NCBI GenBank assembly: GCA_963921275.4
Contig: OZ001293.3
Span: 448,001-512,000, forward strand
DNA: 64,000 nt
Direction of reading: 5' to 3'
Source of the DNA: an uncultured Hormoscilla sp.
GTDB lineage: Bacteria > Cyanobacteriota > Cyanobacteriia > Cyanobacteriales > Desertifilaceae
Positions 31,171-59,117 of this stretch are shown piece by piece (position 1 is the stretch's first letter; each line of letters starts with the position of its first letter). The notes beneath the pieces are model-generated. The model worked only from the letters and a program-made list of their open reading frames with translations. It searched no databases and had not been told where the DNA came from. The translations under genes were made by a program, and so were the position numbers.

Positions 31171-33031
31171 TTAAAACACGCTCAGATGCAAATTTCGTGC
31201 CAGTTGTTCTAACAGAAACAAACCCGCGACAGAGTTTCCTGCTGCATCGATCGGGGGACTGTAACAAGCGATCGCTCCCTCTCCTGGCACAACTGACAAT
31301 AGCGCCCCACTCACTCCTGACTTAGTGGGAAGTCCCACCTGCACTGCAAAGCTTCCAGAACTTTCATACAAACCGCAGGTAGTCATTAATGCCTTGACAA
31401 TGCGGCAGTTTTCTGCTAATACTCGATCTCCAAATGGTACTAGCAGCATGCCCAAACTGGCTAAATCCCCAACAGTTCCAGCCAGACAACATAGCTGATT
31501 ATAGGTATCTATAGTAACCGCTGCTGATGCTTGCAGATAACCAGCATCAGCTATTTCGTAGGCGATCGCGATATTGGTTTCATTCCGGAGACTGCGCACT
31601 GATTCTAATATTAACTGGTCGGGGTCGAGCTGGGAATCACTCCCCAACCCTCCAAGAGGGGAACCGGACTTGCGACTTTCACCGCTGGGGCTTGTCCTTA
31701 GGCATATCATCATCAATAATTAGGTTACCCCGTATTCCCCTTACCCTCTGTAATTTTACCCCTTATGGTCAATCCTATTGGACCGTTAATGATTTCAGCT
31801 CCGGAAGGTATGCGCTGCGCGCACGCTGCGCGATCGCGGAGGGTAGTTCAGCAAACCATTCTAGCCGCTCTTCTCTAACATTTCCCCATTCTGGCAATTT
31901 ATCGGGGCTCTGAACTTTACCCGGCTGAGACTCTAGTCCATATTCATACTTTTGGATTTCTCCTAAGTTTTGCGACGTGTTAGGGCTACTTTCACCAAAG
32001 GCTTCTTACCATATCCGTCCTACGTCTGCATATCCCAGGCATTACCCCAGGCGTTGGCTTCTTAGAACATCCTTCCTCTTCGCGGCTTGCGCTTTACATC
32101 TAACTGGTCCAAATGGGGACAGCTCACGTGAGGTTACTTCGTTCCCTAATATCATTTCTCGATGCTTGTAGGCCCCTGCTATACCCCGGGAGTTCTTTGG
32201 GTGCGATGCTGGCAATAGATGACTACCAACACTAACTACCATTTTCCCTTTTGGGCCAGCGTATAAGCCTTATTCCGCTGGTTCTATGTAACGAGGCTTT
32301 AACAGGTTCGCTTGTTCTAACCATGAGCATCTTTCCTAGCGGCGTCACTGGGTTAGGCTGCCAGCTATCCTACATTTAAGTCCTAGCGGAGCACCACGGC
32401 GATGTGACCCCGCAGCACTAAGGACCGGTAGTATCCTCGACCCCCCACACCTGGGGAGAGGGAATTTAACCCCCATGATAACCAGAGTTATCCGGCAAAT
32501 GAAACCAGACCAGACTTCACCGTCGCCAGTTTACGCCTGAACGAATCGCACCATCTAAAACTAGATGGCAATCGGCGTTTTTATTCAGTCACGCAGGTTT
32601 TCGCAGCGAGACGAACCATCTGTCCCCGGGAGTAGGGACATGAGGGCGATCGCCCCACTATTAAGCATGGGGTTGCGCGGGAAACCCTCATCTGCACGCA
32701 GTTGGGCCAGGGAATTGAAGGGGCGATCGCTCGGTAACATGCCCACGTGGTCAAATACCCTTTCTGCACCCAACTGCTCTAACAAGTATAGCAAAACAAA
32801 GGGCTTGACCGCACTCATTAACGAAAAAGACAGGGTCAGGTCTCCAGAGGTATAAATATCACCATTAACATTGCAGATATGCACGGCCAACCAGTCCGGC
32901 TGAGCTTCAGCTAGCCCCGGGATATAATCTGGTAGTTGACCCCCCGATCGGGCATGAATTTGTGCTTGCATTACCCAGGCATCAAGTTGCGACTGAGTCA
33001 GGGACTGTAGTCCAGTTGAGGGTACTTTCAT
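31171..33031 (-). pseudogene. glsA: Glutaminase, split by group II intron copy 1 plus a frameshift at ~32585
   Basis: YIPGLA, LMSAVKPF, PRNPMLNSGAI, TCGLYE, GLPTKSGVSG, GNSVAG. Confidence 0.88.
31617..32551 (-). mobile_element. ORF-less group II intron, copy 1
   Basis: 5' GTGCG; D5-like AAGCCCCAGCGGTGAAAGTCGCAAGTCCGGTTC; D6 ending CGACCCCGAC(C); upstream exon TAGATG matches EBS1. Confidence 0.92.
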
Positions 33032-33036
33032 CTTTA

Positions 33037-34155
33037 CTAATTTATCCCAACAATTTCTGGTAAGCCAGCAAATGCTTCGCCAACCGTTACATAGGGCTTA
33101 AGCTGAAACAGTTCTAACTCAGAACCATGAGTAGGCAGCGGTAAATGAATCATTCCCAGATCCTGGCGGCAACCGAGAAAGAACAAGCGACGCCGTAACT
33201 GGGGAGCCCCGAAATCCGCAGCCAGCAGTACACCCACCGATACATTATAGCCTAAATCCCCCATTTGATGCAAAATCTGTTGATAGAGGCTGCCGCCGCC
33301 CATCCCCTTCAGATTAGATACATTCTCCATCACAAAGAAGGGCGGATTTAACTGCTCTACAAACCGCAAAAACTCAAAGATCATTCTCCCTCGACAATCT
33401 TGTAAACCTCTCTGCTTGCCCGCCTGACTAAAAGCTTGGCAGGGCGGCCCTCCAAATACCAGATCGGGCCCTGCAACTGTACCAGATTTTTCCTGCCATA
33501 GACTTAATGGATCTTCTACAGCGGCAATGTCTTGTTCGAGAACGCAGACAGGAACCTGAAAAAAACCGCTTAAGGTAGCACAAGCATCTTGCCAACTATC
33601 GAGAGCAATGCGAATATCTATGCTGCCTGTATATTGGGCTCCAATATCCATTCCTCCCGCCCCACTGAACAAACTGAAAGCTTTCAGAGTCCGCCATCCC
33701 AAGGCCCGTGCAGCCTTAACCACCTGCTCGAACACGGCCTTGGCTAGAGGCACGGGTACGGCATTACCTACCTGAAGCTGCGTACTTGTTAGCGTCCCCG
33801 CAAATTTAACCTCATCGGGGAAGCCTTGTAAACGAGCTGCCTCTCGCACTGTAATGAAGCGGTTTTCGTAGGGGTGGACAAATTTATTGAAGATATAGCC
33901 CGTCACAGTCAAGGAGGGTCGATCGGGACCGACCCGAATCATTCTCAGGTTTGGTCCTCCCTTCCGGGTTGAGTCATGCTTAACGTAGAATTTAAAGCTC
34001 TCGTGCCAAAGCTCTTCGGGCAAATCCTGCATTTTTTGCCCGATTTTTAGAGCATCGATCCGCCTTTGCACATTGGCTCCCACGCGGCGAGCCACGTGAT
34101 TTGCCACAATTTGGCACGGAGTATTAGAATTGGAAGTTGCGTGCAATCCATTCAT
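33037..34155 (-). CDS. Circularly permuted C5-cytosine DNA methyltransferase
   Basis: TRD and motifs IX-X (TVREAARLQGFPD, QVGNAVP) precede I (FSGAGG), IV (GPPCQ), VI (ENV), VIII (PQLRRR). Confidence 0.9.
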   Translation of the reverse strand: MNGLHATSNSNTPCQIVANHVARRVGANVQRRIDALKIGQKMQDLPEELWHESFKFYVKHDSTRKGGPNLRMIRVGPDRPSLTVTGYIFNKFVHPYENRFITVREAARLQGFPDEVKFAGTLTSTQLQVGNAVPVPLAKAVFEQVVKAARALGWRTLKAFSLFSGAGGMDIGAQYTGSIDIRIALDSWQDACATLSGFFQVPVCVLEQDIAAVEDPLSLWQEKSGTVAGPDLVFGGPPCQAFSQAGKQRGLQDCRGRMIFEFLRFVEQLNPPFFVMENVSNLKGMGGGSLYQQILHQMGDLGYNVSVGVLLAADFGAPQLRRRLFFLGCRQDLGMIHLPLPTHGSELELFQLKPYVTVGEAFAGLPEIVGIN

Positions 34156-35401
34156 CTCTTACATAGCTATGGGTGAACGTTATTATACCATCAAACAGAT
34201 TGTATAGATTTTTTTCTGGTGGTAAGTCAGCTACTTGCTGCGCTTTCCCCGTTTCGTCTAGCGTCCAGACAATATCCTGAAGATCGCGCAGGTACTCGTC
34301 ATAATGCCGCACCGCATGAATGTTGGAAAGCAGAGCGGTTTTAACTGTCATCTTACTTGGTTTAGGCTTCCCTGCCGCTGCTATCTTTAATACTTGATAA
34401 ATTCCCTTCTTAATGTCATCAGTTCTATCCATTCCCACACTAGATTTTCCATCGGAAACAGACTCTTAGCCCTTGCCACTCTTTCGACGCGGCCAATTTG
34501 AAGGTCTAGGCATGGGTTGCCCGCAAGCATTAGTCAACCAATATACTGGTTGAGGTAATATATTACTTGACCAGAGGTTTTTGTTATAGGCAGAATAAGC
34601 CATATGCCAATATTGGAAATAACGATAAAATAATTGCTCGTCTTCTCTGAGGACTCTGCCAATTTGCTGATAGGTCCAGGTGGCATAATTTTCTTTACCT
34701 TTGACCCCTAAATAAACCAGATCGTAGCCCCAAGTTCTTTCTTGTAGTTTCGGAAGCAGAATATGCAGTTCGGATGATGTCAGAAACGGATTGTTTGTAG
34801 CTGCATGTCCGCAAGCAACTAATTCGTCCTCATCTTCAATAGACTTTTGAACCTCAGCAGGAACTGCTAGGGCTAGTGTAGTAAGTGGAGCCGCTTTGAC
34901 TTCCGCAAGCAATACTATGTTTTCGGTTTCATCATGAATGATAACATCAACTGGTTCGCAACCATAATGAATAGTTAAATTGCGCGAATAAATGTTAAAC
35001 AAATGCTGGAGAAATACACAAAGCAAACGACTTGTAGTTTTGCCAATAATTCCAGATGGCAGTTTATTAGCTTGATGAAAGTAAAAGTTACCTTTAAGGA
35101 CGCATCGCGGGCAAGTGTTCGTGTAGGGGTAGAGCAAAAGAGGATACTCGTCGCCGGGACAATAAAGCCATCCATTATGAGCTAGTTTGGTATAATATTC
35201 GACAGCGACAATCAGGTCAAAGGCGGCGGCAAGTGAAAGACCAGGAGCGGTAGAAGTCTGTCTGGCATTGTCCAGAGCTTGTTCGATCGCGATTTGAGCT
35301 AAGGCTGCTTCGTGCGGATGTACTTCGAGCGCTTTTGCTTTTGCTAAAAGGTTTTCTATTCCCTCAATATTAACTGGCTCTGGCTGGTGGCTTTCATTCA
35401 T
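34124..35401 (-). pseudogene. Putative type II restriction endonuclease with in-frame TAA at 34466-34468
   Basis: PD-(D/E)xK-like EPVD...AEVK; both ORFs in the same frame; overlaps the MTase start. Confidence 0.7.
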
Positions 35402-36717
35402 TTATTTTCCTCCTTCAGGAATGCTGCTTTTCTCACTTTCAGTGACAATATCCGGGATTTCCGATGCGATCGCATCTGGAGATGGCAAAATCTGCCGATA
35501 AGGGCGATCGCCCCAGAGATAGTCACAGATCCAATGATATAGCACGGCGAGGCGGTTGCGGAAACCAGGTAGATAAAACCAGCGAACCCCTAAGCAAAGC
35601 AACCAAGGGAGAAAACCAGTCAAATTCAGTTTTCCCAACTTAGCCACCCCAGCATTACGCTTAATAATAGCCGCCCTACCAATATCTCGATCGCGTAGGC
35701 GTAGCCGTGTGCGCGCAGCGCAATCCTGAAAAGGTAAAGGATCTTCTCTCTTTAGCTGCAACAGGATGTTTTGGGCCACCGCAACTCCAAGTTGCTGCGC
35801 TGTCGGGGCAACTCCAATTAATGCTTGCCCTTCCAGTAAGCTTAGATCTTCAATAGCATAAACTTCGGGATGTTCTGGCAACTGGAGAGTAGGTTCGACA
35901 GCAGTAGGATCTCGAAAGTGAGCTTCCACCCCTGCTGTCCAGACGATAGTCGAGGCATTAATAATCGTACCATCTTCTAAATATACGGCATTGGCAGTAA
36001 CTTCCCTCACCCTGGCCTGCAAATGTATCTTCACCCCCAGTTTCCGCAGTTGCTTTTGTGCATACTCCCCCAAGCGCCTAGGCAGGTGCGGAAGTAAACG
36101 GTTTGCAGATTGCAAAATTATCACTCGCACCTGCTGCCAATCTAGATGAGGATAATCCTTCGCTAATGGACCTTTAATCAATTCCATCCAAGCACCTGCT
36201 AATTCTACACCTGCCGGACCGCCCCCACGATCGCAAAGGTAAGGAGTTGGGGGAGTTGCGCTGGATCCCGAAAAGCAACTGTCCGTTCAAAACAATGGAG
36301 AAAGTGGTTGCGTAGGGTGAGAGCTTCTGCTATAGTTGTCAATGGTAGGGTATTTTCTGCCGCACCAGGAACTCCGAGAAATTGAGATTGACTCTCTGTA
36401 GCTAGTACGAGGAAATCATAGGGAATTGTTGGCCCGTCGGTTTCCAGAACCCGATCGGTAAAATCAATCTGCTTCACTTCGGTCATGAGAAAATGAACAT
36501 TATTCTGTCGCCGTAATATCCGACGGATGGGATAGGCAATCAACTCTGGTGGCAGTTGCGCAGCCGCTACCTGATAGATTAGAGGCACGAAGCTGTGGTA
36601 GTTGTGGCGGTCAACTAGCAACACCTCGACGCCAGCACTAGCAAGCGATCGGGCGGCCACCAGACCGCCAAATCCTGCTCCGACAATTACGATGGGAGAA
36701 CCTTGGGATGCTGTCAT
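35402..36717 (-). pseudogene. Type II NADH dehydrogenase-like FAD oxidoreductase, frameshifted
   Basis: IVGAGFGG, PLIYQVA, WTAGV; frameshift in the second GxGxxG near 36220. Confidence 0.85.
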
Positions 36718-36873
36718 TGTCTTTGTGAATGGGTGAGATATTCTAGTTTAAGATCTACAAGATGTTTTGATGGGGGCGCGATCGCATGACTGCTATTTTA
36801 CCGGATCTCGTTCCTGTCTAACAACTGACTGACAGGCGAGACAAGTCCTACCCAACTGACAACTTACATTAGT

Positions 36874-37793
36874 GGTCGGGGTCGAGCTGGGAATCACTCC
36901 CCAACCCTCCAAGAGCGGAACCGGACTTGCGACTTTCACCGCTGGGGCTTGTCCTTAGACATATTGGGTTACCCCGTATTCCCCTTACCCTCTGTAATTT
37001 TACCCCTTATGGTCAATCCTATTGGACCGTTAATGATTTCAGCTCCGGAAGGTATGCGCTGCGCGCACGCTGCGCGATCGCGGAGGGTAGTTCAGCAAAC
37101 CATTCTAGCCGCTCTTCTCTAACATTTCCCCATTCTGGCAATTTATCGGGGCTCTGAACTTTACCCGGCTGAGACTCTAGTCCATATTCATACTTTTGGA
37201 TTTCTCCTAAGTTTTGCGACGTGTTAGGGCTACTTTCACCAAAGGCTTCTTACCATATCCGTCCTACGTCTGCATATCCCAGGCATTACCCCAGGCGTTG
37301 GCTTCTTAGAACATCCTTCCTCTTCGCGGCTTGCGCTTTACATCTAACTGGTCCAAATGGGGACAGCTCACGTGAGGTTACTTCGTTTCCTGGTATCATT
37401 TCTCGATGCTTGTAGGCCCCTGCTATACCCCGGGAGTTCTTTGGGTGCGATGCTGGCAATAGATGACTACCAACACTAACTACCATTTTCCCTTTTGGGC
37501 CAGCGTATAAGCCTTATTCCGCTGGTTCTATGTAACGAGGCTTTAACAGGTTCGCTTGTTCTAACCATGAGCATCTTTCCTAGCGGCGTCACTGGGTTAG
37601 GCTGCCAGCTATCCTACATTTAAGTCCTAGCGGAGCACCACGGCGATGTGACCCCGCAGCACTAAGGACCGGTAGTACCCTCGACCCCACACCTGGGGAG
37701 AGGGAATTTAACCCCCATGATAACCAGAGTTATCCGGCAAATAAAACCAGACCAGACTTCACCGTCGCCAGTTTACGCCTGAACGAATCGCAC
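36874..37793 (-). mobile_element. ORF-less group II intron, copy 2
   Basis: Near-identical to copies 1 and 3; upstream exon CTATGT matches EBS2. Confidence 0.92.
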
Positions 37794-39020
37794 CAACCAG
37801 ACATAGACGGTTGTCACGAATGACAAACTCTTTCGGTATTGGTAGTCCATGCAGACTGCGGCTACGCTGCTCACGTAGGCACCCGATGCATTCAGGATCG
37901 CGCGATCGCCAACCTCTAGTCTTGCCATCTTTTCGTTAAGACAAAAATAATCTATCTCATAACAGATACAACCTGCGAGGTCATGCAGTAACATCGGTCC
38001 TTCTCTCAACGGGATCTGAGCAACTGCTGGACGCGGTGCCCAGAACATCAAGTTCCAAGCAGAGGTATCCAAAACAACAAGGCGATTCCCAGAAGGACGA
38101 TCGTCTGCTGCTTTGACTTCTGCAACCAGGTAGCCCGCCATCATCGTTAATAGCATTCCCGGCTCAATCACCAGCCGTACTGGTTGCTGGCGCTGGTCAT
38201 TTATGCGGGTAAGGGTCTTACCTACTCGATCCCAAACCCCTTGTGCGATCGGTCTTTGCATATAGAAGAGGTAAGTCCAACCGCCGCCGAGATTGATCGC
38301 TTCAACTGAGGGAAAGATTTCCAAGTAAGATACTAGCACATCGAGGGTCTGATGTAGATCTGCTTTTGAAAATTTTTCACCTTCATGAAGGTGAAGATGG
38401 ACTACCTCAAGCCCATGAGTTTGTATGAGGTCCTATAGACTGGGATCTAAAGGATCCACTCCAAATCTGCTCAACCTGCTGACTACATTCGTCCCCTTGG
38501 CATCTTCGGCCAAAGGAAGGCGAAGTCGAAGCCCGACTCTTTTGTTTCCGTTGTTTCCGTCAAGGCATTCGCACCAGAGACGCAACTGAGAGAGACTGCA
38601 CAAATCTGAAATCACGCCCTCAGTTGCCAAGCGCTTCAGGTCGGCAACTGAGAAGCCTGGTGCTGTAGAGTAGATTGGCGACAGCCCTGCTACAATGGCA
38701 GCATCTAGCTCTTGTATCGTCGAAATGTCTGCTCCCAGCCCAAGTTTAGCCATATGACGCAACACAGATGGGCAGCGGTTTGCTTTGACCGCCAAACAAA
38801 GATCGACATTGGAAATTTGTCTGAGGTCGTTTCGTAAAGCCGTTACAGTGTTAGTGATGGCATCTAGGTCGTACACAAGTGCCGGGGTGGGAATATCCCC
38901 GGCAATCTCTAACACTGTCTCCGGAATAGGTAGATGAATGTTCGTCCAATTTCTAAATTCTGCTACATCATCTCGCCACCAATCTTTGATTTCTTGGTTG
39001 CTATTGTCTTTGGCGCTCAT
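37794..39020 (-). pseudogene. PLP-dependent fold-III decarboxylase (LysA-like), with in-frame TAG and frameshift
   Basis: TPALVYD, AVKAN, SRFGV, INLGGG, IEPG, GCICYEID, GAY. Confidence 0.8.
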
Positions 39021-39063
39021 GCTACTATAAAAATGAATTTTCGTGATTTGTTTCTCGTTGCTG

Positions 39064-39812
39064 TCAGATAGATACCTTCTGGTAAACCATATATAGATCG
39101 TCGGGAGTTACCTCTTTCAACTTCAACCCTGCCCCCTTCATCGTCTCTTCTAGAAGTTGGCCGTGCAGCATTAAGAATTTATGGCGATCGCGAGCCAATA
39201 TCTCACCTTCTTTTTCGAAACGATAGTCAGTTTCCCAAAAGTACATTTCTTGATTCTCTAGGAAAGTGAGATGCTTTTGCTGAGCGTAAACCATGCCGTT
39301 ACCAATCTCTTGCTCGCCATCGGCATCGATTTCCTCTGCTTGAATGTTAATTACAAACAAGCCACCGTCAACTAAATGGCGGGCAATATTCTCGAACATT
39401 GTAACGCTGTCGGAAAAATTGGGCAGAAAACTGTATAAGTGGTAATCATTCCCAACCCGACATACACCTGCCGGGCCCCCATGGGAATAGATCCCATCAA
39501 AAGATTCTTGCAGGTCCATTGATAAGACATTACCTTCTACTAGCTTTGCCCGATTTCCCAAACGAGCTTTACCCGGTCTAACATAGCAGGAGTAAAATCT
39601 ATTCCAGTTATCTCATACTCGGGATCTAGTTCCAGCAGTTTTTCTACAACCAATCCCGTTCCTACCCCGATTTCGAGAAGTTTTTCCCGACCTTTGAGGA
39701 TAGAGTCGAGGGACTGAGCTGCTTTCGGATAGTCGTAATACACGCTCTCCACAGTGGTCTCATAATACTCGGCAATTTCATCGTATTTATTCATGGTCCT
39801 AGCTCTCCTCAA
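39064..39812 (-). pseudogene. Class I SAM-dependent methyltransferase, frameshifted
   Basis: LEIGVGTG, GIDF, HLVDGGLFVI across two frames. Confidence 0.75.
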
Positions 39813-39828
39813 GCAATTTTTTTTGACA

Positions 39829-40302
39829 TCAATGTTCTTTCGCCAAGCGCTGCTCTCTATGCTGCGCGAGTTGGTATTTTGTCAATATATCTAAGGGCAA
39901 GTAAGCCGCCCCTCTAATTTTACCCAGGCAATCTTTGCTTTGACAAAGACAATCAAATTCTCTATCCATCGACCATTCCGTCGATGGATAGAAGAAAGTC
40001 AGTTCCTCGCCAATTTCAATTTTACTCAAGGCCCTCAACGAGAGATCGCTCATATCAAAAAATACATTGGGAGCGCAGCTATGATTGATATACTGCAAAA
40101 AATCCGGGTCGAGCATAATATGTTGGAGATCGCCAATTTGGACGGTTAAATAATTGGGGCAATATAGGATATTTTTTGCGCCAAATTTACATATAACCTG
40201 TCCGGGCATAAACTCGACGGTGGCTTGCAGGGATTTGCTCCCAGTTGTAGGGCACTCCCGGATCTCGGCCCATGATGCAACTTTTATAGTTTTTTCCGCC
40301 AT
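39829..40302 (-). CDS. SET-domain protein
   Basis: YINHSCAPN, GEELTFFY, post-SET CLCQSKDC. Confidence 0.88.
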   Translation of the reverse strand: MAEKTIKVASWAEIRECPTTGSKSLQATVEFMPGQVICKFGAKNILYCPNYLTVQIGDLQHIMLDPDFLQYINHSCAPNVFFDMSDLSLRALSKIEIGEELTFFYPSTEWSMDREFDCLCQSKDCLGKIRGAAYLPLDILTKYQLAQHREQRLAKEH

Positions 40303-40493
40303 CTAGCTTTTCTCCAAGTCATCCTCTAATAGCGCTATAAAATAAAGGCACTTTTTCAGCTTACCGCATGTGACCGCAACCCGTTGCAGGCACTCTACCA
40401 CTATAAGGGGCAATCGCGCTCCTGTCAACATTACTGGACAAGTAATGAAGATCGATGGCAGTATGGTCGTAAGTCCTTTCAGGGTTGTCCCCC

Positions 40494-41424
40494 ATGAAAC
40501 CTCCCGTTTGGAAAATTACCCTTGTCTTGGCGATCGCCGTTTTGGCGATTTCCACTTCCGCTATTTTCAGCCGCTTGGCTTTTGAGGCTGCGGGCACCCG
40601 GGCCCTAGGGTTTAGCCTGGTACTGGCAGCCTCCCGCTTAACCCTGGCGGCCCTAATTTTGCTGCCCACTTGGGGTAAAGTCCGACTGAGCCAGCAATCT
40701 GCCCGGGCGATAGGGTTAGCTGTTGCCGCTGGCCTGTTTCTGGCCGTACATTTTCCCGCCTGGATTACCTCCCTGGGTTATACTTCCATTGCTGCTTCCA
40801 CGACTCTGGTGACTACTAATCCAATTTGGGTTTCTCTTCTTTCTTGGGTTTGTTTTCGGGAAAAAATTACCTCGACAAGTGCTACTGGAATTGCGATCGC
40901 CATTGCTGGGGGCATCCTGATTGGCTTTGGGGATGCTGGCAGCGGCGACCCGGGAAGCAATCCGATCTTGGGGGACTTTCTGGCTTTAATAGGGGCTTGG
41001 GCAATTAGCTTTTACTTGCTTCTCGGTCGGGAGGCCCAGCGTCAAGGGATAAGTCTGGGCGGCTATATGGCAGTTGCCTACAGTACTGCCGCTTTAGTTC
41101 TATTGCCAATGCCGTTCTTATTCGGCGGCACCTACGCGGGCCATTCTCCCCCAGTTTATTTCTATATTCTATTGATGGCGATTTTGCCCCAGTTGGTCGG
41201 CCACTCTGGATTGAACTGGGCTGTTCTCTGGATGTCCCCCACCTTGGTTACCCTCTCTATCCTCTTTGAACCCCTTGGCGCTAGTTTCGGAGGCTACCTA
41301 CCTCATCTTTGGCGAGGTTCCTACTATACAGGTATTTGCTGGTGCTGTTCTCTTGCTCGCAGGGGTGGCAGTTGTGGCGATCGGCCATGGAACTGGGAAA
41401 CCAAGGCACAAAAAAGAACTTTAG
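40494..41424 (+). pseudogene. DMT/EamA transporter, frameshifted by a 4-nt duplication at ~41295
   Basis: 10-TM EamA pattern; GGCTACCTACCTC duplication; shifted frame resumes YLIFGEVP. Confidence 0.75.
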
Positions 41425-41539
41425 GGGCGGTGACGGCGTAGTGACGAAGCTGGGGATAATCTCATTGTCTCGGTGAATGCAAATGAGCGAGATATTCTAG
41501 TTTAGGATCTACAAGACGTTTTCATAAAGGCGCGATCGC

Positions 41540-44737: not shown

Positions 44738-45046
<309 letters not shown>

Positions 45047-47922: not shown

Positions 47923-48096
47923 GAACCCTCCCTGTCTCCTGAGGAGACAGGGAAGGCGGGCTAACAGCGAAGTGAAAGAATTAGTTTTTTGACGGTAGAA
48001 TATATGAGATAATTAAGAAAAAATTAAATTATCCGGAAGGCAGTCAAAAAACATTGTTAAGAACGATAGGAATAGCCGAGTAGGAGTTAAAGTAAA

Positions 48097-50004: not shown

Positions 50005-50163
50005 ATAACAGCCGCCCGCCCCCGCCGCCCCAACCCCGCCGCCCCCGCCGCCCCAACCCTAAAGGGTGGGGCTAATTGAACAAAGCCTGCCTGCGCAGGC
50101 TGAAGCAGGAATCAGGATATGATAATTAGGACGCATGTTAATGTAAGAAAGGAGTAACCGGTT

Positions 50164-50356
50164 ATGAAGGGAGCCATGAAGCCAGAACGAGAGGGCGATC
50201 GCATTTACAAAGGGCGCTTTGAAGAACTGAAAAGAGAGGTAATGATTGGAATAAAAGCATCGTCACGGGGTGAGGTAGTAGATGGAGAGACGGCAATTCA
50301 AGAAATTCGGCAGAAGCTCGATCTTCGTTGCCAAGAAGCGTCGGGAGAACATCCGA
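50164..50356 (+). pseudogene. ParD-like antitoxin C-terminal remnant
   Basis: RIYKGRFEELKREVMIGI..RGEVVDGE. Confidence 0.5.
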
Positions 50357-50851
50357 GGCGGCGCAGTTGGGCAAATTCCGGGGCAAGAAGCATTAGCTGA
50401 GGTGAGGCGACTGGTGGCGCAATGCTGAGGCGGTCTATCCTGAAGAAGGACCGGTGCAAGTAGCAGGTCAGCTTCTACCTGGAGAATGTTAAGATTCTTT
50501 GCGAAAAGTTGACAGTAGCAGAATTGACGGGTTAAAGTTGTGTTGATGCATCATAAGCCTGGGTAAAAACGCAGGAGAATATGTCTAGTTGGGGCTTGTT
50601 CAATGGCGGCGCAGTTGGGCAAATTCCGGGGCAAGAAGCATTAGCTGAGGTGAGGCGACTGGTGGCGCAATGCTGAGGCGGTCTATCACGAGAAGGACCG
50701 GTGCAAGTAGCAGGTCAGCTTCTACCTGGAGAATGTTAAGATTCTTTGCGAAAAGTTGACAGTAGCAGAATTGACGGGTTAAAGTTGTGTTGATGCATCA
50801 TAAGCCTGGGTGAAAACGCGGGAGAATAGGTCTAGTTGGGACTTGTTCAAT
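50357..50851. repeat. Tandem duplication (2 x ~248 bp) containing degenerate dapL 3' sequence
   Basis: Units 50357-50604 and 50605-50851; translate to AEAVY..VSFYLENVKI..AWVKT..SSW. Confidence 0.85.
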
Positions 50852-50900
50852 ATTTCAGCGTTTAATAGTCGGGAGAATTAAGATTCAGGAGGTCATTCCA

Positions 50901-52489
50901 ATGTCTGATAACTACTTCTTCATTGAAGATTTAATTTATAAGATAAAAATGGGTATAATTAGAATTCCATCTTTCCAAAGAGGTTTTGTTTGGGATCGGG
51001 ATAGAGTTCGCAACTTTATAGACAGTATATATAAAGGGTTTCCTTTTGGGTCCGTATTAATATGGCGAACAAAAACTCCCCTAAGAACAGAAAGAAATCT
51101 TGGGCCTTATAAGCTGCCTGATAACGAACCAGAATATCCGATAGATTATGTTCTAGATGGTCAACAAAGAATCACATCTATTTTTGGTATATTTCAGAAC
51201 AGTATAGATCTAGAAAAAAATGAGAATACTGATTGGACATATCTGTACTTTGAAATCAATAGTCAGGACTCTATTCCTTTTTGTTACCTAGAAAGTAATG
51301 AAGACCATGACATGCACAAATATTTTCCGTTAAAGTATGTATTTGACTCTCGTAAATACAGAAATGTTACTCGACATATAGAGGAAGAATATGCAGAAAA
51401 AATAGACGAGTTAGTTGATAAGTTTAAAAAAGCCAATATACCGATTTAACGCTTTGAGACGGAAGAAAGAAACTATGTCGCAACTGTTTTTGAAAGAATT
51501 AATCGGCAGGGTTTGGAATTAAATACATTTGAATTATTGTCAGTGTGGAATTGGAGCGAAGATTTCGACCTGCAAGAAAAGTTTCGAGAAATTTTAGAGA
51601 GACTAGAATACTTTGATTTCAACGAAAGCAAATCAGATTTGCTTCTCAAATGTTGCTCTGCTGTGATAAAAAATAGTGCAGATCCTAAAGATTTTTTAGA
51701 CATGCGTAGCGATGAAGTAAGAGAAAAATTTAATGAAATAAAAACAGGAATATTTAGAGCTATAGATTTTCTCGAAAAAGAGCTGAGAGTTTTTTCTTTG
51801 AAACTACTACCTATGGAAAATATATTAATCGTTCTTTCTTCTTTATTTGCTGCTTCCAAAAAGCAGCCAGATCCTATACATCAAAAGCAATATGAATGTA
51901 TAAATAAGTGGTTTTGGCGTTCATGCTTTTCTGAAAGATATGCGAGAGGAGGAAAAAATATTGAAGTAGATCTGAAGGAGATCCAGAAACTGAAAAATGG
52001 TCGGGATAGTGACCTAGGAGAATTTAATATAGATATAGATAAAAATTACTTTCTGCGGAATAATTTGAGAATGAATACAATTGCTACAAAAACTTTTATT
52101 CTTATATTAGCAGATAAGGAACCTTTGAATTTTATTCAGGAAAAAAAATATCTTTAGATAATGTTTTGTCCCAAGGTAACAGAAAGGAATTCCATCATAT
52201 TTTCCCTAAAGCTTATCTACAGGGCCTAAAGGAGTATAATGACAATCAAATAAACTGCTTGGCAAATTTTTGTATTCTTTCAAGAACAGACAATAACAAA
52301 ATTAAGGATCGTCCTCCAAGTGAATATATATCCGAAATATCTAAAGACAATCAAAAGAAAATATTGGAAAGTCATTTCTGTTTTGAAGTTATTAAGGAAC
52401 TATTAAAGAATGATTTTGAAAGTTTTCTATATCAAAGAGCAAGTTTACTTTGTAAAAGAGCGCGGGAGTTGTCACAACTGCCGAACTGA
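50901..52489 (+). pseudogene. DUF262/HNH (GmrSD-like) nuclease, stop at 51447 plus poly-A frameshift
   Basis: PSFQRGFVW, VLDGQQRITS, FERINRQG, EFHHIFPK, LANF; AT-rich. Confidence 0.85.
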
Positions 52490-52564
52490 AAAGTGAGAAA
52501 GGTAAGCGAACTTCCTGAAATTAGCTTAAAATAGACATAGTTGCCTAGCAATTGCTTTACTCCT

Positions 52565-53248
52565 ATGGTTGTAAGTACCATCATCGACCTACCCCCTCTC
52601 GAAAGCGGCGATCGCCTGACAAGGGCTGAGTTCGAGCGTCGCTACACCGCATCTACAGACATTAAAAAAGCCGAACTGATTGAAGGAGTTGTATACGTGG
52701 CTTCCCCCGTCCGCGCGAGAAGACATTCCAGGCCCCACGCAATGATAATCCATTGGTTGGGAGAATATTGTGTAGCGACACCTGGCGTAGATTTACATGA
52801 TAACGCCACTGTCCACCTGGATGCCAATAACGAGCCTCAACCCGATGCCTTATTGCGCATCGAACCAGAAGTAGGGGGCAACTCTTTCATAAGTGAAGAT
52901 GACTACATTGAGGGTGCGCCAGAACTGATTGCCGAAATTGCAGCCAGCAGCGCCGCCTACGATCTGAATGACAAACTCAATGCCTATCGTCGCAATGGCG
53001 TACTTGAATATATTGTCTGGCAAACCTATGAGAACAGAGTTGATTGGTTCGCACTGCAAGCAGGCCGCTACGTCCCGATCTTGCCCGATGATAATTCCAT
53101 TATCGCTAGTCGAGTCTTCCCTGGTTTGTGGTTGTCCGTAGAGGCCCTGCGCCAAGGCGATCGCCGGAAGTTAAAGGCCGTTTTGCAGTCAGGTTTGCAA
53201 ACAGAGGCGCATCAAGAATTTGTTCGAGTACAACTGAAAGCCTTGTAG
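52565..53248 (+). CDS. Uma2-family endonuclease
   Basis: LESGDRLTRAEFERRY, EPQPD, APELIAEI, YRRNGV. Confidence 0.9.
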   Translation: MVVSTIIDLPPLESGDRLTRAEFERRYTASTDIKKAELIEGVVYVASPVRARRHSRPHAMIIHWLGEYCVATPGVDLHDNATVHLDANNEPQPDALLRIEPEVGGNSFISEDDYIEGAPELIAEIAASSAAYDLNDKLNAYRRNGVLEYIVWQTYENRVDWFALQAGRYVPILPDDNSIIASRVFPGLWLSVEALRQGDRRKLKAVLQSGLQTEAHQEFVRVQLKAL

Positions 53249-53257
53249 AGAAAGCCT

Positions 53258-53452
53258 TTAGTCCACTGGAAATTCAAGGCAGGCGAGAATGTCTTACTCT
53301 GTGAGTTCAGGAAAGTCCTCTAAAATCTCAGCATGAGACATTCCGGCTGCCAACCAGCCAAGCACGTCATAAACAGTGATACGCATACGCCGGATACAAG
53401 GCTTACCGCCTCGCTTATCCGGCTCAATTGTAATCAGGTCGCGATAGCTCAT
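53258..53452 (-). pseudogene. DUF433 antitoxin-like protein with internal stop
   Basis: ITIEPDKRGGKPCIRRMRITVYDVL..EILEDFPELTE*DI. Confidence 0.8.
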
Positions 53453-53501
53453 GGCCCATAGATGTTTAGGATCTAGTCTAGCTTAACACATCACGGCACT
53501 T

Positions 53502-53909
53502 ATGAATTTTGAACAGATTTGGCAGCAGTATGACTTTACCGAAGCTGAGTTGTTAAACATGGGTTGGCAACTCCCTGGCGATTACCTCCTGCATTTGAAC
53601 TATTATTGGGACGAATGGGGACAGGTGAGCGATCGCTCACGCCCCCTGACAGTAATTCTACTCGACTGCACTCGTCTCACCGTGCAGTTGAACCCGACGC
53701 GCCCAAAGTCAGGTTATCCATCTCACCTAGGAACCATCGTCGGTTGGGGCTTAGTCTCGCCGTCAGAGTGGTGGCTTCGTCAGCAACTTTCTGAGGACTT
53801 GTGGCTGCATTTGCGCTTTGAAATCGGTAGCGATAGCTTTATTGAAGCCCTCTGTCGTTCTCTAGCAGTTCAGCAGCAGGAATTTGCCCTTTCAGTTAGC
53901 AGTGCTTAA
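53502..53909 (+). CDS. Hypothetical protein
   Basis: 135-aa ORF with ATG, no recognised motif. Confidence 0.55.
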   Translation: MNFEQIWQQYDFTEAELLNMGWQLPGDYLLHLNYYWDEWGQVSDRSRPLTVILLDCTRLTVQLNPTRPKSGYPSHLGTIVGWGLVSPSEWWLRQQLSEDLWLHLRFEIGSDSFIEALCRSLAVQQQEFALSVSSA

Positions 53910-53935
53910 CAGCCTCAGATCCTACCCATGCTTGC

Positions 53936-54568
53936 TTAGTCATTAATTGCTAATTGACTGAGGCGTTTAAGAATGCTCAAAACCCGATACAAATCATTCC
54001 CGGGGTTGCGTAGGGAAAATTCAGCAGAAGTAGCGTATCGTGGTACTTCACCTTTGACTAATTTGATGAAAATGAACGTGCCTCCAGTGGCGATCGTGCC
54101 AAAGCAAGGTTTCTCTAGATCGGGGTTGGCCAGCATATAAGCTATAATTTGTGGGAGTCCAGCCTCGATCGAGAAGCTAGCCCGTTTGGACTCGATTACC
54201 ATTACCCACAATTGCTCTTGCAAAACTAGGGTGTCAATGCTACCCTTGATTACCACTTCTTCATCAGACACTGAAATCTCTATAGGATGTTCTGCTTTGA
54301 AGTGAAAAGGCGGAAGATAGAATTCCCCGATAAAGACAAGAGGGGAGACGATCGCTATGTTGACTGGCTTTTCGAGGAAAGGAGTTTTTCTAATCAAATT
54401 AAAATATCCAGCTTTTACCCGGTCTAACAGTTGTTTTTGCGAGTCGGTAATTTCTGGCAAGTTGTCTTGCCACTCGCGGAAAAATTGGTCATCGTCAACT
54501 AGCTGAAGGTGAAATATACGTTCTAAGTCGTCCAGGGTGACGTCTTTAGCTGAAATTGTTTCTGCCAT
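53936..54568 (-). CDS. HsdR-N-like PD-(D/E)xK protein
   Basis: GSID, VIESK, PQIIAYM, ATGG.FIF. Confidence 0.8.
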   Translation of the reverse strand: MAETISAKDVTLDDLERIFHLQLVDDDQFFREWQDNLPEITDSQKQLLDRVKAGYFNLIRKTPFLEKPVNIAIVSPLVFIGEFYLPPFHFKAEHPIEISVSDEEVVIKGSIDTLVLQEQLWVMVIESKRASFSIEAGLPQIIAYMLANPDLEKPCFGTIATGGTFIFIKLVKGEVPRYATSAEFSLRNPGNDLYRVLSILKRLSQLAIND

Positions 54569-54647
54569 AGTTGTGATTTGTCAGATGTTATGAATTAATA
54601 GTCCGATCGAGGAATATTATTGTCTGATCGGGAATGGTGCTCCGACA

Positions 54648-54914
54648 TTAGGTATTTTCCTGCTGTATCCCATGCTTGTCAAGTGAAACAGGGGAAAAAT
54701 TTCCCCACATCTCGCGACGTGCTTCAGTGATATCTGCTGCTGTAATCTTAATTCCCAAGTCAGCACACAACCCTTTGATGCTGCGACGCGGGCGCGAATA
54801 ATTACTCTTTTGCACGAGAAACTCCGCAAAGTCCAACAATTACTGTTGTTTGTCTGGGGGCAATTGTAGCAGTTTTTCTAATACTGCTTGCTGAATGTCT
54901 GTGGTTTTTATCAT
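54648..54914 (-). pseudogene. DUF2281-like antitoxin with in-frame stop
   Basis: LEKLLQLPPDKQQ*LLDFAEFL..GLCADLG..DITEARREMW. Confidence 0.7.
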
Positions 54915-55014
54915 TTTGATTACCGCTGTCCCACCCAAAAACTCCGATCGCCCCGGCGGGGTAACTACTGCAAACAGTGGTAAGCTAGTTGAGGAGTTTT
55001 GTAACAATCGGACT

Positions 55015-56250
55015 ATGGCAAAGATCAACGATAACTACCTGAAGCTCAAAGCTGGCTACCTGTTTCCCGAAATTGCTCGCCGGGTAAATGCCTTTGCTCA
55101 GGCCAATCCTGATGCTCAGATTATCAAGCTGGGTATCGGCGACGTGACTGAACCCCTACCAGAAGCCTGCTGCACCGCCATGATGAAGGCAGTTCAAGAC
55201 ATGGGCGATCGGGCCACCTTCAAAGGCTACGGTCCCGAACAGGGCTACCCCTGGTTGCGGGCAAAAATTGCCGCTAGTGACTTCCAAGCCCGGGGATGCG
55301 ACATCGATGCTTCGGAAATCTTCATCTCCGACGGTTCCAAGTGCGACACGGGCAACATTCTCGATATCTTTGGCCATGATAATGCGATCGCCATTACTGA
55401 TCCCGTATATCCAGTATACCTCGACACTAACGTAATGGCAGGCAATACTGGACCCGGCAACGATGCAGGCAAGTATGAGGGTATACGGTATCTGCCCATT
55501 ACCGCAGACAACAACTTTACCGCCGAGATTCCCTCAGAGAACGTCGATCTGATTTACCTATGCTTCCCCAATAACCCTACTGGGGCAACGGCGACCAAAT
55601 CAGATCTGAAAGCGTGGGTAGACTATGCTAACGCTAATGGTTCGATCGTTTTCTTCGATGCCGCCTACGAAGCTTTCATCACAGATCCGGATCTGCCCCA
55701 TTCTATCTATGAAATTGACGGGGCCAAATCATGCGCGATCGAGTTTCGTTCCTTCTCCAAAAATGCCGGGTTTACGGGTACTCGCTGTGCCCTAACGGTA
55801 GTACCCAAGACCCTCACGGCGAAAGCAGCGGATGGTTCTGATGTAGAATTGTGGAAGCTGTGGAACCGCCGTCATTGCACCAAGTTCAATGGCGTATCAT
55901 ACATCGTGCAACGGGGGGCAGAAGCGGTCTATACTGAAGCAGGACAGGCACAAATCAAAGCATTAGTCAGTTTCTATCTGGAGAATGCTAAGATTATTTG
56001 TGCTAAATTAACAGCAGCAGGATTGAAAGTTTATGGCTGCGTGAATGCACCTTACGTCTGGGTGCAGACCCCTGCTGGTTTGTCCAGTTGGGATTTCTTC
56101 GATAAGCTGTTGCATAACTGCAATGTGGTAGGAACGCCCGGTTCGGGGTTTGGTGCCGCAGGGGAAGGTTACTTCCGCATTTCGGCGTTTAATAGTCGGG
56201 AGAATGTAGAAGAGGCGACGCAGCGGATCACCGAGAAGTTTAAAGTGTAG
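55015..56250 (+). CDS. dapL: LL-diaminopimelate aminotransferase
   Basis: [38 protein letters not shown]. Confidence 0.97.
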
Positions 56251-56317
56251 AGATTGGGGTGGGCGATGCCCACCCATCCATTGGCAGGCAATTCGATCTA
56301 TGAAATTAAAGTGATAT

Positions 56318-56644
56318 GTGATGTTAACCTGTAACTATCGTGTATTTCAAGAAGCAAACGGCGATTACATTATTCGGGAAGTATTCTATGCAGAGAATGG
56401 CTCGATTCTCGCCTGCACGGAAAATGCAGTTGAACCCTGGGGGCGATCGCCAGAAGAATTAGCCAAAGATATTGAGTCCTTCCAGGAAGCATTAATGCTG
56501 CCCGTATTAACTCTAGCTGATATTCCGACCGATCGAAGTTATCAGAAGCACGAGGGCAAAAACAACATCTCCCGCGAGCAACTCATGGCTGAACTCGGCT
56601 TAAGTCATCTATCACTAACGAGTCTTGGCGATGAAACATCGTAG
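56318..56644 (+). CDS. Hypothetical protein
   Basis: NYRV..YIIREVFY..ALMLPVL. Confidence 0.55.
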   Translation: MMLTCNYRVFQEANGDYIIREVFYAENGSILACTENAVEPWGRSPEELAKDIESFQEALMLPVLTLADIPTDRSYQKHEGKNNISREQLMAELGLSHLSLTSLGDETS

Positions 56645-56670
56645 TATGACAAAATCGGAACGGAGGTATT

Positions 56671-56874
56671 ATGAACGACAAACATAGCCAGATTTCGCCG
56701 ATACCCGAAGAATTTGCTAGCTATGAAGAAGCGGCAGACTTTTGGGATACTCACGACACGACCGATTATTTAGATAGCTTGGAAACCGTATCTCTAGAAA
56801 CAGTGGATCTGAAACGGCGACAGTTTGAAGTTGAGGTGGATGCCGACTTGATGAAAGTGAGGTGTGGGGGTTAG
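56671..56874 (+). pseudogene. CopG/BrnA-like antitoxin, probably truncated
   Basis: IPEEFASYEEAADFWDTHDTTDY. Confidence 0.65.
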
Positions 56875-56996
56875 TCAATTGGTTAACGATCTGCTGCGAT
56901 CGACTATTGGCGATGTTGCCCAAAAACCAGGTTGATGGTTTAGGTGTAGAAGAGGCGATGCAGCGGATTACCGAGAAGCTTAAAAGGAAGAGGTAG

Positions 56997-57370
56997 ATGC
57001 CTACTGACATGCAGTTAAAGTGTTTGTACCGAATTGGCTATCAACTAACATATGTGATGTTTCAGCCGATTCACCTTATTTGTGTTGACGAGCGCACTCA
57101 AAATCTATTCATCCTGGCAGGTAACAACGAAGAAATTGAATTTGAAGTCACCGGGGAGGTACTGTAATGAGTAAAATTGAGTATGTGACAATGTCGGACC
57201 AGCAGTTAAGGCAATACTTTCTCGAACATCGTGACGATCTGGCGGCACTCGAAGCTTACCTCGATCGCCGCCAGATCGCGATCGACTGAAGTCATAACAA
57301 CCGCGAACGACCCCGACTTTGATGCCAAAATCATAGCTGCAATTCGTCAGCAGATGAGCGATAATATTTA
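56997..57370 (+). other. Small coupled gene pair (DUF6888/DUF6887-like); second gene frameshifted
   Basis: MPTDMQL..FQPIHL..DERT..ILAG, then TAATG overlap into MSDQQLRQYFLEHRDD. Confidence 0.55.
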
Positions 57371-57829
57371 ATCAAGCAAAAACTCAGGGTCGAGACTTTC
57401 TTCTGGGGAAAAAGTCGCCGACATTGGCAAAGTATCCAGGGGTAAACCAGTCTCTAAAGCGGCTAACTGTCTGGCATCAAAATAACATTCATCAAATACT
57501 TCCAGGAAGTAATTTTTCAGACTAGGACTATCTTGAAAGGCTTTTCTCAAGCGCCGACGATGTTCAAAAATAGTTGCCAGCCAGCTATTTGAACGTTTTT
57601 CGACCTGATATTGATACTTAAGGAGGTGCATCAATAGCACAACCAAATTGCTTTCTAGCGCCCGTCGTTCTCTTTTTCCCATATCTGTGAGTTCTTCAAT
57701 GAGATTAGCAATATCTAACTCAGCAAATTTACCTTGCTGCAACTGCTTAACCGTCCCTTGCAGCCAAAGATAGTAGTCTCGATCGTAAAGGCTGGAATGA
57801 CCAGTTGTTATGATTCGGGATACCGTCAT
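57368..57829 (-). CDS. DUF29 family protein
   Basis: LYDRDYYLW, NLIEELTDMGK, HLLKYQYQ, SPSLK. Confidence 0.9.
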   Translation of the reverse strand: MTVSRIITTGHSSLYDRDYYLWLQGTVKQLQQGKFAELDIANLIEELTDMGKRERRALESNLVVLLMHLLKYQYQVEKRSNSWLATIFEHRRRLRKAFQDSPSLKNYFLEVFDECYFDARQLAALETGLPLDTLPMSATFSPEESLDPEFLLD

Positions 57830-58003
57830 ATGTTCAACTTCTTAAGCGACCAAAGTTTGGCTACATTATAGCAGTAAAATTGGATTGGCGATCGGCTTGC
57901 CAGAAACCGGGTTGCGAAAATTAAACAAATCTTAACAAGCCCAGTTGCACGAGGTACAGATTTACGGTAGAATCAAAGAGCAGTAAATTTCAACTAAGTG
58001 GTG

Positions 58004-59117
58004 ATGGTGCGATTCGTTCAGGCGTAAACTGGCGACGGTGAAGTCTGGTCTGGTTTCATTTGCCGGATAACTCTGGTTATCATGGGGGTTAAATTCCCTC
58101 TCCCCAGGTGTGGGGGGTCGAGGGTACTACCGGTCCTTAGTGCTGCGGGGTCACATCGCCGTGGTGCTCCGCTAGGGCTTAAATGTAGGATAGCTGGCAG
58201 CCTAACCCAGTGACGCCGCTAGGAAAGATGCTCATGGTTAGAACAAGCGAACCTGTTAAAGCCTCGTTACATAGAACCAGCGGAATAAGGCTTATACGCT
58301 GGCCCAAAAGGGAAAATGGTAGTTAGTGTTGGTAGTCATCTATTGCCAGCATCGCACCCAAAGAACTCCCGGGGTATAGCAGGGGCCTACAAGCATCGAG
58401 AAATGATACCAGGGAACGAAGTAACCTCACGTGAGCTGTCCCCATTTGGACCAGTTAGATGTAAAGCGCAAGCCGCGAAGAGGAAGGATGTTCTAAGAAG
58501 CCAACGCCTGGGGTAATGCCTGGGATATGCAGACGTGGGACGGATATGGTAAGAAGCCTTTGGTGAAAGTAGCCCTAACACGTCGCAAAACTTAGGAGAA
58601 ATCCAAAAGTATGAATATGGACTAGAGTCTCAGCCGGGTCAAGTTCAGAGCCCCGATAAATTGCCAGAATGGAGAAATGTTAGAGAAGAGCGGCTAGAAT
58701 GGTTTGCTGAACTACCCTCCGCGATCGCGCAGCGTGCGCGCAGCGCATACCTTCCGGAGCTGAAATCATTAACGGTCCAATAGGATTGACCATAAGGGGT
58801 AAAATTACAGAGGGTAAGGGGAATACGGGGTAACCCAATATGTCTAAGGACAAGCCCCAGCGGTGAAAGTCACAAGTCCGGTTCCGCTCTTGGAGGGTTG
58901 GGGAGTGATTCCCAGCTCGACCCCGACCACAATCAAAGAACAAATCCTTGAGAAAATTGACCAGTTGCCAGAGTCAGCATTGCTGGAGGTATTGGAATTT
59001 GTGCGTTCTCTAAAAGCTAGGCACCAACCCCAGCTGCAGCAGAGTGATGCCTGGAAAGCTTATCTGGCTTCTAAGCAGGAAAGAAAGGAGGTATACCGTC
59101 GCCTTGCTAGTTCCTAA
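58004..59117 (+). CDS. DUF2281-like antitoxin interrupted by intron copy 3 (exons 58004-58006 and 58929-59117)
   Basis: Removing the intron gives ATG-ACA-ATC = MTIKEQILEKIDQLPESALLEVLEF. Confidence 0.75.
58007..58928 (+). mobile_element. ORF-less group II intron, copy 3
   Basis: GTGCG at 58007; EBS2 58269-58274; EBS1 58337-58342; D5 ~58852-58884; D6 to 58927/8. Confidence 0.92.

Follow-up and report, generated by a model that had tools for sequence, protein, structure and literature searches.

A large family of probably non-autonomous group II introns, in part with a mispaired domain V, in the genome of an uncultured Hormoscilla species

A 64,000-nucleotide stretch of DNA from an uncultured Hormoscilla sp. 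(assembly GCA_963921275.4, contig OZ001293.3, positions 448,001 to 512,000; hereafter the window) contains three near-identical copies of an element (table 1) that, with a probability of about 0.88, we take to be group II introns which are non-autonomous and recognize their exons in the IIB manner, i.e. retroelements that have lost their intron-encoded protein. A first-pass annotation, made from the letters of the window alone, had described them as members of an expanding family of group II introns that lack an open reading frame (ORF), and had placed them in sense orientation in glsA, a LysA-like gene and an antitoxin gene.

Borders, empty sites and host genes

When the three copies are aligned together with 100 nt of flank, their similarity sets in exactly at GTGCG and breaks off directly after ...CGACC (mean column identity 89%, flanks counted in). 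By BLAST, identity to copy 3 amounts to 99% for copy 2 and 97% for copy 1, and the differences among the copies come down to a 13-nt indel and a few substitutions. GUGCG, which conforms to the GUGYG 5' end of group II introns, opens all three copies and 426 of 429 5' ends in the family, whose 3' ends read AUCC, GACU, GACC or UAAU. The longest ORFs within the copies measure 40-128 aa, and tblastn with a 592-aa intron reverse transcriptase (RT) of the same genome detected neither an RT ORF nor an ORF remnant in domain IV (DIV) of the copies (E >= 0.13, on the wrong strand only).

Exact empty sites define the inserted unit. In X5 and X6, two sponge-metagenome DNA runs of one study, contigs of a close relative join position 31616 directly to 32552; the 935 nt of copy 1, no more and no less, are missing from this join, which has 0 ambiguous letters, and no sequence there carries both states. 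Four other species genomes of the genus were searched (G001-G004, with G000 being the genome of this organism), and in three of them, G002, G003 and G004, the 400 nt on either side of copy 3 are contiguous. For sister copies elsewhere in the genome, the joined flanks (30 nt up and 30 nt down) match uninterrupted genome sites 60/60, seven of these sites matching one target sequence and one matching another. An empty site for copy 2 was found neither in the congeners nor in the metagenome contigs, where the LysA-like side of the flank is missing; metagenome contig matches near copy 2 end at ~36819. Insertion is precise, leaves no target-site duplication and is in sense to the host gene, as is characteristic of group II introns. 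The first-pass annotation had claimed the missing duplication and the sense orientation, together with the coordinates, the strands, the lack of an RT ORF and a recent date of insertion, and each point was borne out: the copies by alignment and BLAST, the missing duplication by the empty sites in sisters, metagenome contig and congeners, the recency by the sites of copies 1 and 3 being empty in relatives, and the host genes by Pfam, with the antitoxin remaining DUF2281-like below the cut-off. As a separate observation, the X5/X6 relative is 1.5-3% diverged from the window across 30933-35698 and carries a 26-nt GC-rich insertion (CGATCGCG...) at window position 35283.

When the introns are taken out precisely at these borders, host reading frames and the continuity of Pfam domains are restored. 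Copy 1 splits the Glutaminase domain of glsA between profile positions 1-117 and 140-286, and its exons join in frame (..VLD to E LILES..). The host of copy 2 is an Orn/DAP/Arg decarboxylase according to Pfam, with the intron 26 codons before the end of the gene. Copy 3 stands in an ORF that resembles DUF2281 (23.4 bits, under the Pfam cut-off of 26.5). Sister copies split G6PD_C at 137 and 138, SpoIIE at 65 and 68, and a chromate transporter.

Exon recognition

All three copies carry the same exon-binding sites (EBS), with EBS3 pairing with the first base of the 3' exon. In copy 3, EBS1 occupies the 9-nt loop of an 8-bp hairpin (TGTTGGTA / TGCCAGCA, 58327-58351), the stem of which shows compensatory changes at 8 of 8 pairs among 51 representatives; the EBS1 sequence proposed in the first-pass annotation stands, whereas the stem as drawn there does not. 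The corresponding intron-binding sites (IBS) pair with EBS1 and EBS2 at 6/6 and 4/6 positions in copy 1, at 5/6 (one of them G-U) and 6/6 in copy 2, and at 4/6 and 5/6 in copy 3, where IBS1 includes the start codon of the host (58004-58006). IBS1 is thus perfect in copy 1, IBS2 is perfect in copy 2 and the remaining contacts are partial, just as stated in the first-pass annotation. Partial pairing at IBS1 and IBS2 in the window, combined with an A at position +1 in 3/3 copies, fits retrotransposition to imperfect sites.

At the level of the family, the same contacts emerge from covariation between intron and flank, which was evaluated in those 335 of 342 ORF-less elements that have ungapped EBS columns, with the flanks of elements with a different EBS in 200 permutations serving as controls. 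On their own flanks, elements pair at 5.13 of 6 positions of IBS1, as opposed to 2.62 in the controls (maximum 2.75), and at 4.11 of 6 positions of IBS2, as opposed to 2.58 (maximum 2.84). The family contains at least 25 combinations of EBS1 and EBS2, and subfamilies that differ in these sequences have flanks that differ to match. This covariation corroborates ACAUAG as EBS2 and supplies the EBS complementarity in the flanks of other copies on which the first-pass annotation had made its interpretation depend. EBS3 corresponds to intron position 371, whose mutual information with the +1 base (0.432) exceeds that of the next best column (0.186); it pairs with the +1 base in 91% of the elements, with U facing A in 232 cases (G 35, C 11, U 10), A facing U in 32 of 38 and G facing C in 11 of 13. 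These counts overstate independence, because kin share labels; the pattern comes back, however, across many separate EBS classes. IIB and IIC introns read the 3' exon through a single-pair contact of this kind between EBS3 and IBS3, and exon recognition in this family is of the IIB type. For subclass IIB, the 3'-exon rule given by Zimmerly and Semper (2015, PMC4424553) is such a single pair rather than delta-delta'.

Could these repeats be something other than introns, i.e. miniature inverted-repeat transposable elements (MITEs), insertion sequence (IS) remnants or a family of genes for a structured non-coding RNA? One might think so from the missing Rfam match in the window, the missing ORF and an unexceptional minimum free energy of the whole molecule, but this alternative is effectively refuted. 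The family elements lack terminal inverted repeats and have not duplicated their targets, their excision sites are exact, GUGCG stands at their start, covariation with the flanks is seen at three internal positions, sisters with 92-95% identity pass the Rfam model RF00029 (Intron_gpII), and host frames and Pfam domains are restored upon removal.

Secondary structure and descent

A consensus fold, obtained with RNAalifold from 51 representatives of less than 88% identity, comprises 126 pairs, with 97.4% of cells paired and double compensatory changes at 81 pairs. When the partner strand is slid by 1-2 columns, only 39-50% of cells are paired and 24-35 pairs show double compensatory changes, a control that is lenient because the structure came from the same alignment. 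The helices fall into groups corresponding to domain I (~65-408), domain II (420-476), domain III (484-535), a long DIV (541-839), the upper helix of domain V (DV) and domain VI (DVI); covariation thus supports a six-domain secondary structure. DVI is a 10-bp hairpin capped by GUGA; its bulged A, the putative branch point, is at position -9 relative to the 3' end (58920 in copy 3, 31625 in copy 1 and 36882 in copy 2), i.e. 1-2 nt farther from this end than usual. Its helix has undergone compensatory swaps (GGGA/UUCC, UCCC/GGGA, GUAC/GUAC).

Sisters that are 92-95% identical to the window copies score 47.7 bits with RF00029, and a 95% sister aligns over the full model, including the DV hairpin and a DVI that has its bulged A and the same sequence as in the window copies. 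The genome holds at least 151 RF00029 matches, nearly all above the cut-off, with 150 of 867 first-look candidates having been scored. The covariance-model search suggested in the first-pass annotation formally has the refuting outcome for the window copies, which have no Rfam match, but it does not overturn the interpretation, since sisters of 92-95% identity pass. RF00029 misses the window copies because the 5' strand of their DV is replaced, which leaves DV mispaired. As they have neither a regular DV helix nor an RF00029 match, their membership in group II rests on descent, as it does for the 'degenerated' introns of organelles.

The intron swarm and its reverse transcriptases

With copy 3 as a query, BLAST yields 804 high-scoring segment pairs in the genome, including 37 full-length relatives at 70-100% identity. 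Profile searches raised the number of 5' ends from 436 to 491 and that of 3' ends from 405 to 453, and pairing of ends gave 342 complete ORF-less elements of 600-1100 nt, which by estimate make up ~4% of the genome; the suspicion of many more copies genome-wide was thus well founded. Density amounts to about one intron per 15 kb in this 7-Mb genome, with about three quarters of the introns being ORF-less, and eight copies form the window subfamily in that they share its EBS1 and EBS2. Among the congeners, first-look candidates number 365 in G002, 300 in G003, 352 in G004 and 28 in the fragmented G001, and 6-20 were counted in 21 genomes of other genera. Of the four congeneric species searched, three thus show the same expansion.

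All intron ends lie on the 6.88-Mb chromosome contig, and 0 of the 453-491 ends on contigs C2-C7 (9-52 kb). Some copies form twintrons: two ORF-less elements with EBS1 CUGUAC (G000:C1:1139670-1140612 and 615671-616613) are situated inside introns that bear an RT, ~165 nt upstream of its ORF, and their joined flanks match ~55 similar uninterrupted sites in other introns. An 871-bp insert (G000:C1:5174204-5175074) within a sister copy (5173585-5175392) was considered as a further nested intron and rejected, as it has terminal inverted repeats (GGGYGTGTCATCAAT...); it is flanked by CTAG on both sides and looks like a MITE or IS, and a terminus similar to its own adjoins the intron at 4063314.

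Possible helper proteins abound. Domain searches of the genome gave 75 GIIM and 93 RVT_1 matches, tblastn located 91 RT loci, 58 of which cover at least 500 of 592 aa, and two intact RT proteins have the order RVT_N, RVT_1, GIIM and HNH. These 58 near-full-length RT/maturase/HNH genes could, judging by sequence, act in trans. With DIV devoid of an RT ORF and related RT/maturase genes in the same genome, the copies agree in this respect with the ORF-less introns of Thermosynechococcus elongatus that are mobilized in trans (TeI3 type). RT-bearing introns match the window copies only at 184-309 (72-77%) and at the DV-DVI end (~80%), and with shared RNA being limited to these regions, no close RT-bearing parent is apparent. 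Large upstream matches beside RT genes were considered as traces of such a parent and rejected, since they are nested ORF-less copies.

Domain V and the state of the window copies

A number of findings weigh against our assignment or against the window copies being alive. They terminate in ...GACC rather than in AY, the true 3' border, which the empty sites establish, lying one C past the terminal 'AY' of RF00029. Any detectable remnant of an RT ORF is lacking, and the genome yielded no RT-bearing parent with closely similar RNA. The minimum free energy of a whole copy (922 nt) is no better than that of shuffled sequences (z = +1.02), although at such length this measure is uninformative. No family reached the Rfam gathering cut-off anywhere in the window; on copy 3, RF00029 gave no match even at E <= 10 (only LhrC and HOTAIR_2 appeared, at chance level), and the Rfam D1-D4 models did not match a 95% relative at E <= 1. 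DV in the window keeps the AGC triad, four basal pairs (AGCC/GGUU), the AA bulge and the upper helix GCGGU-GAAA-GUCGC, whereas its lower helix is interrupted by tandem C-C mismatches and hence not continuous: where canonical sisters have AGCCGGAU...GUCCGGUU, the window subfamily has (A)AGCCCCA...GUCCGGUU. Its predicted stability is -4.5 kcal/mol compared with -14.4 kcal/mol for a canonical relative, its minimum-energy fold is something other than the canonical hairpin, and the upper helix of copy 3 is additionally mispaired through a G>A change. Independent lesions, moreover, affect two of the three host genes, as would be expected if the introns did not splice. In glsA, a 1-nt frameshift ~33 nt upstream of the intron (32585-32590, -) leads to a TGA at 32585-32587, and independent contigs from runs of the same organism (X2 and X4) bear this out, showing 0 differences from the window in 32528-35718; in the LysA-like gene, an in-frame TAG (38433-38435, -) separates the N and C domains. 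At 14 host loci of L001-L030, canonical-DV copies occur in G6PD and in class II ribonucleotide reductase genes, and no variant-DV copy occurs in an obviously essential gene. Finally, given the blockwise mosaicism described below, the DV block could have been passed by gene conversion between copies that were already inserted.

Some of these findings also make up the case for a rival account, in which the window copies are dead or dying: they were either inserted in functional form or acquired their mispaired DV by gene conversion, no longer splice and have knocked out their host genes, which are then left to decay. A DV weaker by a predicted ~10 kcal/mol, no RF00029 match, two damaged hosts and the dispensable look of the examined hosts of variant copies all speak for it, and we regard it as possible, if rather unlikely. 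What argues for life comes from the mispaired introns of the genome as a whole. The lower DV helix is perfect over 8 bp in 280 of the 338 elements parsed, in three compensatory versions (GGAU/GUCC, GUGU/GCAC and GGGU/GCCC), and 56 are mispaired, 38 of these being of a second type (5' GUGU facing 3' UUCA), 17 of the window type and 1 of both. The window-type DV occurs 22 times in this genome in at least three DIV contexts, and searches of the other four genomes did not find it. Its 18 copies are inserted at 17 distinct sites, with IBS1 matching at 5/6 or more positions in 15 of 18, and the 38 copies of the second type at 36 distinct sites, with IBS1 at 5/6 or more in 32 of 37. That the 56 mispaired introns occupy 53 distinct sites, and that these match the IBS well, is not what the rival account leads one to expect. 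For the second type, 93 of 703 pairs are at least 99% identical, and in its main subfamily 9 of 16 copies have a sister of 100% identity, which in most cases is inserted elsewhere. As these copies are identical over their full length at different sites, the simplest reading of the sequences would be that RNAs already mispaired in DV retrotransposed very recently, gene conversion after insertion being the alternative.

Exchange between copies is nevertheless frequent, which again can be cited in favour of dead introns. An EBS1 AUUUGC subfamily equals the window subfamily except in the stretch 160-413, which carries EBS2 and EBS1, and the sole canonical-DV copy with the window EBS differs only at 80-160 and 809-906. 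Such block mosaics indicate that targeting modules and the DV block have been exchanged between lineages. The second mispaired type is itself chimeric, combining two canonical DV alleles: a good partner for its 3' strand is the 5' strand AGCCUGGU, and the two are found together in G003, in G004 and once in G000. On the other side, the seven window-type copies share blocks that are absent from the canonical-DV copy of the same EBS type, which is at odds with the rival account.

Host genes of variant copies also contribute on the side of life, as several keep long intact frames across the junction (443, 408 and 393 aa). Next to the interrupted antitoxin, a Fic/Doc ORF completes an antitoxin-toxin arrangement, and because this Doc toxin ORF is apparently intact, we argue that the antitoxin is still being made. 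An 84-aa ORF (58863-59117, +) that begins at a GTG within the 3' end of copy 3 shares its frame with the antitoxin exon, and the antitoxin could conceivably be translated even from unspliced RNA with a 22-aa extension. A junction census for all 342 elements, using open frames of at least 120 aa, a measure too crude for interpretation, counted 95 in sense, 73 in antisense and 174 without a frame; at 2000 random sites, the same measure gave 629, 644 and 727, respectively. On balance, the sequences incline us slightly towards window copies that are still mobile and spliced, and dependent on help by proteins, rather than dead.

A further possibility is that mispaired-DV introns are catalytically incomplete on their own and are rescued by RNA acting in trans, for instance by the DV of the ~280 canonical sisters, in addition to a shared protein. 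DV can act in trans in vitro. Mispaired introns are apparently still spreading in the presence of very many canonical DV sequences, and for the degenerate introns of Euglena a dependence on trans factors is presumed (Mohr 2010, PMC2882425). Yet the AGC triad, the basal pairs, the upper helix, the GNRA loop and the 2-nt bulge are all still present in cis, which makes partial function in cis with protein help the simpler reading, and we consider rescue by trans RNA very improbable.

Neighbourhood of the window copies

Coordinates of the copies, their parts and their host genes are collected in table 1. A gene for a C-5 cytosine DNA methylase (33040-34155, -) adjoins glsA, and the antitoxin/Doc pair is surrounded by a DUF29 ORF and a Uma2 (putative restriction endonuclease) ORF at 57371-57829 (-) and 59550-60125 (+). 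Outside the window, the gene for a class II (B12-dependent) ribonucleotide reductase with a canonical-DV intron (L016, G000:C1:847132-851045) also has a weak Intein_splicing match (27.7 bits, with a cut-off of 35.8).

Table 1. Location of the three window copies, their functional parts, target sites and host genes (positions within the window).
Feature	Copy 1 (strand -)	Copy 2 (strand -)	Copy 3 (strand +)	Remarks
Intron copy, assigned to ORF-less group II introns	31617..32551	36874..37793	58007..58928	935, 920 and 922 nt; alignment and BLAST (copies 1 and 2), Pfam host domain (copy 2)
EBS1	32216-32221	37460-37465	58337..58342	CAUCUA
EBS2	32284-32289	37528-37533	58269..58274	ACAUAG
EBS3	32181	37425	58377	U
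Target site	32552..32564; IBS1 TAGATG 32552-32557, spacer, IBS2 CTAGTT 32559-32564	37794..37806; IBS1 TGGTTG, spacer, IBS2 CTATGT	57994..58006; IBS2 CTAAGT, spacer, IBS1 GTGATG	
IBS3	31616	36873	58929	A
Domain V	31662-31693	36919-36950	58852..58883	
Domain VI	31623-31653	36880-36910	58892..58922	
Host gene	glsA, 31171..33031; exon 1 32552-33031, exon 2 31171-31616	LysA-like decarboxylase (pyridoxal phosphate-dependent), 36793..39020; N-domain 38436-39020, C-domain 37794-38432, 26 codons after intron	DUF2281-like antitoxin ORF; rest of ORF 58929-59117	copy 2 near 3' end of gene; copy 3 directly after ATG
Downstream ORF			59139-59489	Fic/Doc toxin-like

Discussion

Established group II biology suggests how the window introns may propagate. 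A copy would be transcribed as part of the mRNA of its host; an RT/maturase/HNH protein from an RT-bearing intron elsewhere would bind it in trans and assist its folding and lariat splicing; the resulting RNA-protein particle would reverse-splice into DNA at an IBS2-N-IBS1 motif followed by A, complementary to EBS1 CAUCUA, EBS2 ACAUAG and EBS3 U; and the inserted intron RNA would then be copied into DNA. In this proposed cycle, reverse splicing and RNA copying account for precise insertion without target duplication. What the sequences show are exact borders, sites that are empty in relatives, covariation of three EBS with the flanks, a conserved six-domain fold and an ample stock of RT genes; the driving protein and continued splicing we infer.

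The window introns are of a known kind, as found in Thermosynechococcus, at an unprecedented scale and with an organelle-like degeneration. The closest precedent, and until now the best bacterial model, is T. elongatus with 28 introns, of which 17 are ORF-less owing to a single deletion, with six EBS families and twintrons, and its driver proteins were shown experimentally to act in trans (Mohr, Ghanem and Lambowitz 2010, PMC2882425). TeI3 (ORF-less) and TeI4 (RT-bearing) of T. elongatus share with our introns a cyanobacterial host that has more ORF-less than RT-bearing introns, families whose EBS have diverged, good EBS/IBS matches, twintrons and presumed trans drivers. In contrast to the 28 introns there, the Hormoscilla genome has 342 complete ORF-less elements, at least 25 EBS combinations and 453-491 ends. 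TeI3 keeps recognizable N- and C-terminal ORF remnants, whereas none are detectable in the window copies; here, there is also no close RNA relative that bears an RT, DV is mispaired in 56 of 338 elements, and the RT has an HNH domain. Likewise, mobilization in trans is experimental for T. elongatus (PMC2882425), whereas for the window introns we infer it.

With respect to copy number, the maximum that the complete-genome survey by Miura et al. (2022, PMC8919778) gives is 101 introns per genome, detected with the Rfam DV/DVI model. Arthrospira platensis and other filamentous cyanobacteria in this survey resemble our case in the lineage-specific expansion of chloroplast-like group II introns. 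Compared with this maximum, the Hormoscilla genome has about four times as many, and the window subfamily fails the very Rfam model used. Pipelines built around RT ORFs or the DV model of Rfam are blind to window-type copies, as these have a mispaired DV and no RT ORF. Outside supplements, no open-access PMC or bioRxiv paper combining 'Hormoscilla' with 'intron', and no report of the expansion, was found. According to Zimmerly and Semper (2015, PMC4424553), ORF-less introns are rare in bacteria and a mispaired DV is treated as an organellar trait. Loss of the ORF, a mispaired DV, dependence on trans factors and a high copy number are features that the Hormoscilla introns have in common with degenerated organellar introns and the group II/III introns of Euglena plastids (PMC4424553, PMC2882425). 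Degenerate introns of organelles, however, are mostly immobile and vertically inherited (PMC4424553), whereas here the host is a bacterium and the copies are apparently still transposing.

Tentatively, and with more doubt than confidence, this lineage may be seen as having entered a stage like that of organelle or Euglena introns, in which a trans apparatus is shared, recombination between sisters shuffles targeting modules and produces chimeric DV, and degenerate introns still splice and retrotranspose, propped up by driver proteins and perhaps by the DV of sisters. High copy number and dependence on a common trans-acting machinery are the core open step in the story leading from introns to the spliceosome, and this genome offers dozens of targeting specificities, module swapping, twintrons and catalytic hairpins graded from perfect to mispaired. 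If such a stage is indeed what we see, it would provide a living prokaryotic model for the passage from self-contained group II introns to a common splicing machine.

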